From a virus (lineage: Duplodnaviria; Heunggongvirae; Uroviricota; Caudoviricetes): DNA of 5,480 nucleotides. The translations under genes were made by a program, and so were the position numbers. The notes beneath the pieces were generated by a model, which worked only from the letters and a program-made list of their open reading frames with translations, was not told where the DNA came from and did not search any database. Every line of letters begins with the position of its first letter. Position 1 is the first letter of the stretch. Positions 530-4,698 of this stretch are shown here, piece after piece. Location: IMG/VR virus record IMGVR_UViG_2671180427_000005; one strand, given 5' to 3'.

Positions 530-3500
530 ATGGGCAAAGGTGGCGGCAAGGCGCACACGCCGGTAGAGGCAAAGGACAATCTTAAGTCCACGCAGATGAT
601 GAGCGTGATTGATGCCATTGGTGAAGGGCCGATTGAAGGTCCGGTGAAGGGGCTGCAGAGTATCCTGGTGAACAAAACCCCGCTGACGGACACGGACGGC
701 AATCCTGTGATACATGGTGTGACAGCGGTCTGGCGCGCCGGGGAGCAGGAGCAGACACCACCTGAAGGCTTTGAGTCCTCCGGGGCGGAAACCGCACTGG
801 GCGTGGAAGTGACGAAGGTAAAGCCGGTGACGCGCACCATTACGTCCGCGAACATTGACCGCCTGCGGGTCACCTTCGGGGTGCAGTCACTGTTGGAGAC
901 CACCTCAAAGGGCGACCGTAATCCCTCTTCTGTCCGACTGCTGATTCAGTTGCAGCGTAACGGTAACTGGGTGACGGAAAAGGATGTCACCATTAACGGC
1001 AAGACCACCTCACAGTACCTGGCGTCGGTGATTCTGGAGAATCTGCCTGAGCGGCCCTTTAACATCCGGATGGTCCGGGAGACAGCGGACAACACCTCGG
1101 ACCAGCTGCAGAATAAGACGCTCTGGTCGTCATACACCGAAATCATCGATGTGAAACAGTGCTACCCGAACACGGCGATTGTGGGGTTGCAGGTGGATGC
1201 GGAGCAGTTTGGCGGTCAGCAGATGACGGTGAACTACCATATCCGCGGTCGCATCATCCAGGTACCGTCAAACTATGACCCGGAAAAACGCACGTACAGC
1301 GGCATCTGGGACGGCAGCCTGAAACCGGCATACAGCAACAACCCGGCCTGGTGCCTGTGGGACATGCTGACTCACCCGCGCTACGGCATGGGAAAACGTC
1401 TGGGGGCGGCAGACGTGGACAAATGGGCGCTGTATGCCATTGCGCAGTACTGCGACCAGACGGTCCCGGATGGTTTCGGAGGGACAGAGCCGCGGATGAC
1501 CTTTAATGCGTACCTGTCACAACAGCGTAAGGCGTGGGACGTTCTCAGTGATTTCTGCTCGGCGATGCGCTGTATGCCGGTATGGAACGGCCAGACGCTG
1601 ACGTTCGTTCAGGACCGCCCGTCGGATGTGGTGTGGCCGTACACCAACTGCGATGTGGTGGTGGATGATAACGGCGTGGGGTTTCGCTACAGCTTCAGCG
1701 CCCTGAAGGACCGCCACACGGCGGTGGAGGTGAATTACACCGACCCGCAGAACGGCTGGCAGACCTCCACGGAACTGGTGGAAGACCCGGAAGCCATACT
1801 GCGCTACGGGCGCAACCTGCTGAAGATGGATGCGTTCGGTTGCACCAGTCGCGGTCAGGCCCACCGTGCCGGGCTGTGGGTGATAAAGACCGGACTGCTG
1901 GAAACGCAGACGGTGGATTTCACGCTCGGGTCACAGGGGCTGCGTCACACACCCGGTGACATTATTGAAATCTGTGATAACGACTATGCCGGGACCATGA
2001 CCGGCGGACGTATCCTGTCCATCGATGCCGCCAGCCGCACCCTGACACTGGACCGTGAGGTGACCCTGCCGGAGACAGGTGCCGCCACGGTGAACCTGAT
2101 TAACGGCAGCGGTAAGCCGGTGAGCGTGGCCATCACTGCACACCCCGCGCCGGACCGGATACAGGTCAGCACCCTGCCTGATGGTGTGGAGACATACGGT
2201 GTATGGGGGCTCTCCCTGCCGTCACTGCGTCGTCGCCTGTTCCGCTGTGTCTCCATCCGGGAAAACACGGACGGCACCTTTGCCATCACGGCGGTGCAGC
2301 ACGTACCGGAAAAAGAAGCCATCGTGGATAACGGGGCCAGCTTTGAGCCGCAGTCAGGCACCCTGAACAGCGTTATTCCACCGGCAGTGCAGCACCTGAC
2401 GGTGGAGGTGAGCGCGGCTGACGGTCAGTATCTGGCACAGGCGAAATGGGACACGCCGCGGGTGGTGAAGGGTGTGCGCTTCAGTCTGCGCCTGACCAGT
2501 GGAAGCGGTGAAAACAGCCGCCTGGTGACCACCGCCATCACCGCAGACACGGCGCACCGTTTCAGTGGCCTGCCGCTCGGGGAATACACCCTGACAGTCA
2601 GGGCAATTAACAGTTATGGCCAGCAGGGCGAACCGGCCACCACCACCTTCCGGATTAACGCGCCAGCAAAACCCGCCACCATTGAACTGACGCCGGGGTA
2701 TTTTCAGATAACGGCGGTCCCGCGTCTTGCGGTGTATGACCCGACGGTACAGTTTGAGTTCTGGTTTTCGGAGACAAAAATCGCAGACACATCTCAGGTG
2801 GAAACCTCTGCCCGTTATCTGGGGACCGGCAGTCAGTGGAGTGTATCCGGCCCGCACATTAAGCCCGGGAAGGATTTCTGGTTTTACGTGCGCAGCGTCA
2901 ACCTGGTGGGGAAATCTGCGTTTGTGGAAGCCAGTGGCCGGGCCAGCAATGATGCAGAAGGGTATCTGGGGCTGTTTCGGGAAAAAATAGGAAAACTGCA
3001 TCTGGCTCAGGGGCTGTGGGAGCTGATAGACAACAGCCAGCTTGCGGATGAGATGGCGGAGATGAAGACCACCATCACCGAAACCCGCAATGAAATCACA
3101 CAGACGGTCAACAAAACACTGGAGAACCAGAGCGCCACCATACAGCAGATACAGCGCGTGCAGAAGGACACAAATGATGACCTGGCTGCACTTTACATGC
3201 TGAAGGTACAGAAAACAAAAAATGGCATACCCTATGTTGCCGGTATTGGAGCGGGGATTGAGGATACTGATGGCCAGCCACTGAGCAACATACTGCTGCT
3301 GGCTGACTGTATCGCGATGATAAATCCGGAGAGCGGCAACAGCACTCCGTTATTTGTGGCGCAGGGGAATCAGCTGTTCATGAACGACGTGTTCCTGAAA
3401 CGACTGTTTGCGGTGAGCATCACCTCGTCCGGCAATCCCCCAGCATTTTCCCTGACGCCGGAAGGAAAGCTGACGGCAAGGAACGCGGATATCAGCGGAG

Positions 3501-4006
3501 CAATTACCGCGAATACCGGCACGCTCAATAATGTCACCATTAACGAGAACTGTGTCATCAGAGGGAAACTGTCTGCAAACCAGATTGAAGGCGACCTGGT
3601 GAAGACGGTGGGGAAAGCCTTTCCCCGGAATAACAGTTATGCCAGCGGTACGGTAACCGTCACAGTTTACGATGACCATGGCTTCGACCGGCAGATTATC
3701 ATTCCCCCGGTGCTGTTTCGCGGGACGAAACACCAGAATTTCAACAGCCCGAATCAGCAGTCGTACTGGTATTCCACCTGTAAGCTACAGGTGCTGAAGA
3801 ACGGGGTTGAGATTTTCCATGAACCGGCAACGGATGTCAGCCGGGTGTTCTCATCGGTGATAGATATGCCGGCAGGGCGGGGTCATGTCACCCTGACGTT
3901 TAATGTGTCGTCGGCCGGTGCGAACAACTGGACGCCGACAACGTACATCAGTGATTTACTGGTTGTGGTCATGAAAAAATCCACGGCAGGGATCAGTATC
4001 AGCTGA
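530..4006 (+). CDS. J: Host specificity protein J (tail tip / central tail fibre), 1158 aa
   Basis: ATG at 530 preceded by a Shine-Dalgarno-like AAGGGTGAG (518-526); stop TGA 4004-4006. The N-terminus [39 protein letters not shown]... matches lambda gpJ ([22 protein letters not shown]...) as recalled. There is long collinear similarity including fibronectin-III-like repeats (about 2380-2940) and the conserved ...[19 protein letters not shown]... C-terminal block. The track's TTG at 488 is an upstream in-frame artefact that begins inside the terminator hairpin. Confidence 0.95.
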
Positions 4007-4025
4007 CGGTTTATTAACCCGGACG

Positions 4026-4049
4026 GGCACCTCAGGAGGTGCCTTTTTT
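4026..4049 (+). terminator. Intrinsic terminator downstream of J
   Basis: 7-bp stem GGCACCT (4026-4032) / AGGTGCC (4037-4043), loop CAGG, followed by TTTTTT (4044-4049). It starts 20 bp after the J stop. Confidence 0.7.
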
Positions 4050-4074
4050 ATTGACTGAAAACAAAGAGGTAATC

Positions 4075-4698
4075 ATGCGGCATTTATACGCAACGATATT
4101 ATTGTTTACTACCCTGCTGGCAGGAATTGCCTTTCCTGCACAGGCTGAAAGCGGACACGGTGCATTTTCCGTGGGATATGCTCAGGTTCACCCGGGCGGC
4201 GTACCGGCATTGTCCGGTACCGGTGCGCGTGCAGGTGATTTAAAAGGGATTAATGTGAAATACCGTTATGAGTTCACGGATCACCTGGGCGGCATTGTCG
4301 CGCTGAGTTATGCATCGGTGAAGAAAAGTGACACGATGCAGACGGGTGAAAATACCTTCCATTATGAAAGCCTGCGCGGTCGTTATGTCAGTCTGATGGC
4401 CGGCCCTGTCTGGCAGCTCAGTGAGCGGGTCAGTCTCTATGGCATGGCCGGGATGGCGTACACCCGCTGGTCTGACAGTGTTCAGGATTACCGGCGTGAT
4501 GAAGTGAAACCGGGGTATGTGAAGGAGACCACCACCGCCAGTGATGGTCATACTGCGCGTCATCTGTCGCCGGCCTGGAATGCCGGGATTCAGTTCAGTC
4601 CCGTAGAGACGGTGGTTATTGACCTTGCTTATGAAGGTTCCGGCAGTGGCGACTGGCGCACTGACGGGTTCATCGTGGGTGTTGGCTATAAATTCTGA
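4075..4698 (+). CDS. lom: Lom outer-membrane protein (Ail/Lom/PagC/OmpX family 8-stranded beta-barrel), 207 aa; prophage moron
   Basis: ATG at 4075 with Shine-Dalgarno AAGAGG (4064-4069) 5 nt upstream; stop TGA 4696-4698. Predicted signal peptide MRHLYATILLFTTLLAGIAFPAQA with cleavage after AQA. The mature protein is collinear with lambda Lom (conserved GINVKYRYE, FHYESLRGRYVS, AYEGSGSGDWRTDGFIVGVGYKF with C-terminal Phe). The track's GTG at 4039 lies inside the J terminator hairpin and is rejected. Confidence 0.9.
   Translation: MRHLYATILLFTTLLAGIAFPAQAESGHGAFSVGYAQVHPGGVPALSGTGARAGDLKGINVKYRYEFTDHLGGIVALSYASVKKSDTMQTGENTFHYESLRGRYVSLMAGPVWQLSERVSLYGMAGMAYTRWSDSVQDYRRDEVKPGYVKETTTASDGHTARHLSPAWNAGIQFSPVETVVIDLAYEGSGSGDWRTDGFIVGVGYKF

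Follow-up and report, generated by a model that had tools for sequence, protein, structure and literature searches.

Whether the distal third of a lambda-like tail fibre gene was acquired from a compositionally foreign donor, and whether the phage carrying it uses a different receptor, is the question raised by a 5,480-nt stretch of DNA from a member of the Caudoviricetes (IMG/VR record IMGVR_UViG_2671180427_000005; hereafter the window), in which the J gene, encoding the tip attachment protein or central tail fibre, occupies nt 530..4006 on the plus strand. A preliminary description of the window, made from the letters alone, had singled out nt 2941-4003 as a mosaic segment marked by a drop in GC and by divergence from lambda gpJ, and had proposed that this phage may use a receptor other than the LamB of lambda. 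We consider it very probable that nt 2941-4003 specify the distal portion of a central tail fibre of lambda type, that this part is a recombinational mosaic whose receptor is LamB or OmpC, and that the GC drop is a family-wide trait. What we describe is ordinary and already on record, namely the modular distal end well known from lambdoid J genes—along all of its 1158 aa, the J protein matches RefSeq WP_053919442.1 from Escherichia coli Z1323HEC0108 at 100% identity.

The identity of the gene can be stated plainly. Its open reading frame (ORF) translates into 1158 aa plus a stop codon, and six Pfam domains of gpJ—FNIII-A_GpJ, Phage-tail_3, Ig_J, Ig_J_second, Phage_Tail_Tip, and Ig_GpJ_C—score above their cut-offs and follow one another as they do in lambda gpJ. 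Similarity to the solved lambda gpJ chain 8iyk_J is full-length and collinear (E=0, 1712 bits), and the neighbourhood, as annotated in records 96–99% identical to the window, is that of a lambdoid prophage tail segment comprising the end of gene I, J, lom, and the start of the side-tail-fibre gene (stf). By domains, similarity, and neighbourhood, the window J is a lambda-type tip attachment protein or central tail fibre; by analogy with the lambda structures (PMC11101478), it would form a trimer at the tail tip and trigger DNA ejection upon receptor binding.

We found the GC drop along J to be real, but only about half as large as the preliminary description had it. The windows counted there by hand were right (65.0% at 1561-1620, 66.7% at 2401-2460, and 48.3, 60.0, 46.7, 53.3, and 43.3% across 2941-3240), but those it named are extremes—across 60-nt windows in J, mean GC is 59.7% before nt 2941 (n = 41) and 53.1% after it (n = 16; Mann-Whitney p = 4e-4). 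A single change point fits best at nt 2748 (60.4% before, 52.7% after; z = 4.4), about 200 nt upstream of the start at 2941 given earlier, within the second FNIII/Ig-like domain (FN3-2; Pfam Ig_J_second, aa 714-814, nt 2669..2971, plus strand), and both third-position GC (GC3, from about 0.74 to 0.65) and second-position GC (GC2) add to it. The lambda J gene has the same step, from 59.3% to 53.2%, at lambda aa 725, the place homologous to that in the window, and in both phages the lower level runs on through lom. More broadly, all 15 J genes compared (that of the window and 14 others) have 59–61% GC in the 5′ part and 49–54% in the 3′ part, whatever their C-terminal allele. Because lambda J and all 14 other J genes share the drop, it is not evidence of import; lower 3′ GC is a family-wide property of J genes and no mark of a recent acquisition. 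A compositionally foreign segment would be recognized by an allele-specific GC shift coincident with its breakpoint, and no such shift was found; the step at nt 2748 lies 700–800 nt upstream of the breakpoint of the receptor-binding domain (RBD) described below. As a marker of mosaicism, therefore, GC fails, given that the step precedes the proposed segment by about 200 nt, lies in FN3-2, and is common to lambda J and to every allele examined.

Divergence from lambda, the other element of the preliminary description, was borne out block by block. In a global alignment with lambda gpJ, made together with a 15-gene panel, aa 1-814 (nt 530-2971) are collinear at 61–82% identity with only two 1-residue indels; identity falls to 18% counting gaps, or 27% over aligned residues, in aa 815-897 (nt 2972-3220), where the window protein has 28 extra residues, rises to 67% in aa 898-996 (nt 3221-3517), and falls again to 47–50% in aa 997-1158 (nt 3518-4003). 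Identity over the last 150 residues does not approach the figure of over 90% that had been set beforehand as the sign of an undiverged C-terminus. Likewise, a lambda-type LamB-binding RBD allele would be expected to show high identity to lambda gpJ aa 970-1132, and the window allele shows 47–50%. Compared overall, lambda gpJ (P03749; PDB 8iyk, 8xcj, 8xck) and the window J have the same six-domain architecture, I-J-lom-stf gene order, GC step, and RBD fold, whereas the window shaft is 28 residues longer and 18–27% identical and the window RBD is 47–50% identical with indels in two loops.

These blocks correspond to the domains that follow FNIII-2 in the lambda structure determined by cryo-electron microscopy: an AHS (alpha-helical shaft), a central straight fibre (CSF) with a beta-prism fold, and the RBD, four distal loops of which enter LamB (PMC11101478). 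The central divergent segment of the preliminary description is a long-form AHS and not a receptor determinant (aa 815-897, nt 2972..3220, plus strand), lying between FN3-2 and Phage_Tail_Tip as the lambda AHS does (PMC11101478). Alignments place its 28 additional residues, equivalent to four heptads, at aa 837-864 (nt 3038..3121, plus strand); they are absent from the J proteins of lambda, 434, and Fels-1, which have a short AHS. The long form is found in phage 21, 1H12, and PPompW, at 58% identity and without indels, and 163 phage records match it. An AlphaFold2 (AF2) model from the single sequence contains one continuous helix over aa 836-890, with a predicted local distance difference test score (pLDDT) of 86–94 for aa 840-879, and the 28 extra residues fall within this confidently predicted helix. 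Downstream, the CSF (aa 898-996, nt 3221..3517, plus strand; named after PMC11101478) is covered by Pfam Phage_Tail_Tip (aa 871-998).

The last block is an RBD cassette (aa 997-1158, nt 3518..4003, plus strand), and the earlier reading of the C-terminal part as the receptor-binding determinant held up in both sequence and structure comparisons. Pfam Ig_GpJ_C, the receptor-binding domain family, matches aa 1035-1158, and in an AF2 model of aa 951-1158 the mean pLDDT of 10-residue blocks ranges from 67 to 97 over aa 1021-1150, and every block but one reaches at least 77. The best Foldseek matches to this model are 9wca and 9wcb (A8 gpJ, closed and open with EDL933 OmpC, 78% identity), followed by 8xcj and 8xck (lambda gpJ with and without LamB). 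At the level of amino acids, the window RBD is 99.4% identical to those of BP-4795 and Stx1 (Shiga toxin) phages, 88% to phage 21, 78% to A8, 75% to phi330, 62–63% to the 1A2 class, 47% to lambda, and 46% to 434. The value for phi330 equals that for YYZ-2008, and phi330 is tentatively placed in the A8 class by this identity band; the A8 C-terminus, for its part, is 100% identical to the J C-terminus of Stx1a_99E13. RBD alleles fall into discrete classes relative to the window: at least 99%, 80–90% (listed matches at 85–87%), 60–80% (listed matches near 75–77% and 61–63%), and below 60% (about 46–52%). With 88% identity and no indels relative to phage 21 and 1H12, the window allele belongs to a BP-4795/phage 21 class defined by RBD identity of at least about 85% and equal loop lengths. 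It falls outside the A8/phi330 class, natural members of which are 99–100% identical to the A8 RBD, differing from A8 by 35 substitutions (78%). The allele is widespread, with 1033 sequences in the RBD cluster that contains a 100%-identical member and 26 phage records at least 99% identical, and it is carried by Stx1 and Stx2 prophages of enterohaemorrhagic E. coli (EHEC).

What reveals the mosaic structure of J is synonymous divergence. Four genes—those of Stx1a_99E13, YYZ-2008, Stx2a_JNE122137, and 1720a-02—are 86–99% identical to the window at the nucleotide level in every segment of aa 23-996, and their RBDs are 55–70% identical, with third-position identity of about 40% (codon statistics leave out the first 22 residues of J, since the start is mis-set in six panel genes; Stx2a_1447, +40). 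For Stx1a_99E13, synonymous divergence (dS) relative to the window is 0.02–0.38 upstream and saturated in the RBD, and sliding windows show identity to these backbone relatives collapsing at about aa 975-1000. A different combination is seen in PPompW_EH1992, which is 99% identical to the window up to aa 600, has a phage 21-like FN3-2, AHS, and CSF from about aa 700, and yet carries another RBD; across phage records, shaft type and RBD type assort independently. By the measure of synonymous divergence, and not of GC, J is thus a recombinational mosaic. The preliminary description was correct that the 3′ third is mosaic, with a jump in synonymous divergence at the CSF/RBD junction, and correct on the role of the RBD and on divergence from lambda; where it went wrong was in taking GC as the marker of mosaicism, in overstating the GC drop, and in misplacing its start.

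Within the 3′ third, nucleotide conservation is highest in a block at aa 940-1009 (nt 3347..3556, plus strand), where mean pairwise nucleotide identity among 8 allele classes is 67–88%, compared with 22–71% inside the RBD; judging from this conservation, the block is likely to be the crossover site for RBD exchange. The junction chosen by engineers for J chimeras, lambda aa 964, corresponds to window aa 990 (PMC11338833, methods), and that of the A8 chimera coincides with the natural breakpoint. Substrate for such exchange is abundant: of 5426 complete E. coli genomes, 4966 contain J homologues, at a median of 3 and a maximum of 17 places per genome.

Relative to the phage 21 J (OL657228), the closest characterised allele, no part of the protein is better conserved than the RBD, at 88% amino acid identity compared with 58–82% elsewhere, and the shaft is equal in length. 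Within the RBD, the two genes differ by 73 synonymous and 19 non-synonymous codon differences, with a non-synonymous divergence (dN) of 0.085, saturated dS, and a third-position identity of 46%; relative to Stx2a_JNE122137, RBD dN/dS is 0.108. The saturated synonymous sites indicate that the window and phage 21 alleles separated long ago, and, together with low dN, that the RBD classes are old, stable cassettes under purifying selection and not fast-drifting tails. A recent transfer of the RBD, which the 88% amino acid identity to phage 21 might have suggested, was rejected in view of a nucleotide identity of 76% and the saturation of synonymous sites. Variation among classes is concentrated in four hypervariable patches on the plus strand: aa 1030-1039 (nt 3617..3646; 36% mean pairwise nucleotide identity; a loop in the model), aa 1070-1079 (nt 3737..3766; 22%, with indels between classes; a loop), aa 1090-1109 (nt 3797..3856; 39–49%; a beta-hairpin with its turn at aa 1102-1103), and aa 1130-1139 (nt 3917..3946; 42%; within a model loop at aa 1131-1142).

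Other named relatives fit the same pattern of shared backbone and exchanged cassette. The natural class of the A8 gpJ chimera (9wca/9wcb), represented by Stx1a_99E13 and YYZ-2008, has the backbone family and RBD fold of the window, with an RBD 78% identical (35 differences), and OmpC binding has been shown for A8 and phi330. The 1A2 class (PPompW_EH1992 and Stx2a_JNE122137) also has the window's backbone family and an RBD cassette at the same junction, with an RBD 62–63% identical to that of the window, or 66–68% over aligned residues, and other loop lengths. Assignment of 1A2 itself rests on a machine-read supplement sequence with frameshift errors: tblastn puts 1A2 gpJ in the PPompW/JNE122137 class, with an exact identity that is not computable, and at the nucleotide level its error-containing 3′ end reaches only about 67% identity to the panel and could not be assigned to any class.

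How the distal part of J came to look as it does can be explained in other ways. Were the 3′ third a recent import from a lower-GC donor, the GC drop would mark both the import and a switch away from LamB; GC does fall along J, the RBD is only 47% identical to that of lambda, and two related RBD classes use OmpC. We nevertheless regard this as improbable, given that the step recurs at the homologous place in lambda J and is shared by all 14 other J genes whatever RBD class they carry, that the step at nt 2748 lies in FN3-2, 700–800 nt upstream of the RBD breakpoint, and that the nearest characterised RBD, that of phage 21 (88%), uses LamB. Still further from what we observe is the idea that the divergent segments arose in place, by arms-race positive selection within one lineage and without recombination. 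Laboratory lambda and phage 21 J proteins do gain new receptors by a few C-terminal substitutions (PMC11336670), and RBD variation is concentrated in loops; however, a jump in dS from 0.02–0.38 to saturation, seen at the junction in individual pairs of genes, cannot be the product of point mutation in place, phages combine shaft and RBD types independently of each other, and RBD dN/dS is low (0.108 relative to JNE122137; dN 0.085 with saturated dS relative to phage 21), so that we hold this origin to be very improbable indeed.

Several points do weigh against a mosaic fibre carrying an old RBD cassette that binds LamB or OmpC. Breakpoints were placed by sliding-window identity on 14 comparison genes, and in nucleotide identity the RBD is no closer to that of phage 21 (76%) than are the hub domains (75–81%), so that what connects it with phage 21 is an allele class shared since long ago and not a recent transfer. 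The shaft model was computed from single-sequence input and, at an overall pLDDT of 58.8, is only locally confident; all structure models show single chains of what is a trimeric fibre; and that the four hypervariable patches are the counterparts of the four receptor loops of lambda (L1–L4) is something we infer. Finally, the literature searched reports no receptor for BP-4795-class J proteins or for the RBD allele of the window.

In the mosaic reading, which we still favour, nt 2941-4003 encode, in order, the end of the second FNIII domain, the long-form AHS, the beta-prism straight fibre, and the Ig-like RBD, and the gene combines a J backbone of "EHEC-prophage" type (aa 1 to about 996) with an RBD cassette of the BP-4795/phage 21 class that is old and conserved by selection, the two being joined somewhere within aa 940-1009. 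By analogy with lambda (PMC11101478), three such RBDs would dock on a trimeric outer-membrane porin with their distal loops inserted; the distal ends of the RBDs would then spread while the CSF compacts and twists, the AHS would flip and partly refold, and the FNIII strings would detach, opening the hub and tail tip for DNA ejection.

Which porin this might be is constrained by a handful of characterised relatives. The lambda RBD binds LamB and the 434 RBD binds OmpC (PMC11101478); phage 21 natively uses LamB, with the substitution I1025T adding OmpC (PMC11336670); the A8 chimera uses OmpC (PMC11338833; PDB 9wcb), as does phi330 (PMC12502783); and the 1A2 chimera class uses EDL933-type OmpC, but not K-12 OmpC (PMC11338833). 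Sequence identity is a poor guide within this set, because the A8 and phage 21 RBDs are 82% identical and differ in native receptor, so that identity at such a level does not predict the receptor, and because phage 21, the one member of its class for which LamB is known as native receptor, uses LamB all the same although the RBD of this class is about 47% identical to the lambda RBD in our comparison, so that divergence alone does not predict a change of receptor. Most likely, the receptor of the window allele is a trimeric porin, either LamB or OmpC, at roughly equal odds between which sequence cannot decide.

Each of these two options leaves the architecture of the fibre the same. That the allele binds OmpC rather than LamB, as the EHEC-prophage alleles A8 and 1A2 do, is plausible, at a little less than an even chance: the allele resides in EHEC Stx1 and Stx2 prophages, the setting also of the 1A2-class phages and of the A8-class Stx1a_99E13, YYZ-2008, and phi330, its identity to A8, for which a structure of the complex with OmpC exists, is 78%, and phage 21 needs just one substitution to use OmpC. 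Yet the window RBD is nearer to LamB-using phage 21 (88%) than to A8, it has Leu at the phage 21 switch position I1025—neither Ile nor Thr, and a conservative change—and A8 and phage 21, 82% identical with differing native receptors, show how little identity predicts. Binding to LamB, the native receptor of the nearest characterised relative, phage 21, is tentatively favoured by the 88% amino acid identity maintained under strong purifying selection, although 9 of the 19 residues at which the RBD departs from phage 21 (and 16 of the 35 for A8) fall in the four hypervariable, probably receptor-facing patches, and single substitutions alter receptor use in this RBD class; it, too, is possible at somewhat below even chance. 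Rather unlikely, by our estimate, is that the RBD shared by the window and BP-4795, lying between LamB-using phage 21 and OmpC-using A8, is a natural dual-receptor binder of LamB and OmpC, or binds a porin unassigned in this clade.

Comparison with close relatives shows how finely patched such loci can be. A prophage of E. coli Z1323HEC0108 shares 98.8% identity with the window; the listed full-length records of Stx1a- and Stx2a-converting phages are 94–97% identical to the whole window, and BP-4795 is 94% identical to it across 90% of the window's length. In BP-4795 (ORF72) and Stx1_14040, the J RBD is 99.4% identical to that of the window and the rest of the protein 94–100%, and only scattered nucleotide differences, clustered in small patches, separate the J genes of these two phages and of WP_053919442.1 from that of the window. 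Nearly all J differences from Z1323HEC0108 are found at nt 3201-3400, with 10 differences in 200 nt, all synonymous; Stx2a_JNE122137 is 96–99% identical to the window in aa 871-915, and the patch resembles a short gene-conversion tract from another J copy. A further 47 of the 69 differences from this closest genome lie in nt 4001-4400, in the J-lom spacer and mainly the 5′ half of lom, a clustering that indicates that lom is also patch-mosaic. Clustering of this kind is typical of gene-conversion patchiness.

The regions flanking J were also surveyed. Tail assembly gene I ends at nt 294, and is separated from J by a spacer of 235 nt (295-529), compared with 60 nt in lambda and phage 21; downstream of J lie a lom homologue (about 4074-4697) and the start of the side-tail-fibre gene (from about 4762). 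The spacer is AT-rich (about 39% GC) and contains, on the minus strand, a promoter-like site at 427-400 and a terminator-like hairpin at 325-310, which would bracket a transcript of about 80–90 nt. No long minus-strand ORF was found in 295-529, and Rfam searches returned nothing credible in the whole window at gathering thresholds or in 250-560 at E values up to 10; the RNA fold of the spacer is not unusually stable (z = -1.5). A 176-nt core of the spacer is kept at 72–91% identity in 149 EHEC-type phage records, where it is largely unannotated, a few records showing no more than a hypothetical protein or the 3′ end of gene I. Relative to Stx1_14040, otherwise 96.5% identical, 91 of the 204 differences fall in nt 201-600, where I ends and the I-J spacer follows, a concentration which suggests that the spacer is itself an exchangeable module. 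Terminator-like hairpins on the plus strand are found just before the ribosome-binding region of J (465-488) and directly 3′ of its stop codon (4025..4044), the latter recognized only by a pattern scan (a stem of 8 bp with 5 G-C pairs, and a T-run), and phage 21 has annotated terminators at both relative places.

For lambdoid phages more generally, the window J cautions that an intragenic GC step is no evidence of import when every homologue has it, and that an RBD diverged from that of lambda need not use a different receptor. If fully helical, the longer shaft would add about 4 nm to the closed fibre (28 residues x 1.5 Å, calculated). Dual or other-porin binding, if true, would be a natural counterpart of laboratory-evolved generalist J proteins. 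The RBD allele is a frequent one among Stx-converting and other EHEC prophages; knowledge of its receptor would bring a further cassette into the lambda-based delivery toolkit, with the natural breakpoint at the junction already used for chimeras, and would help to predict the host range of long-tailed Stx phages.

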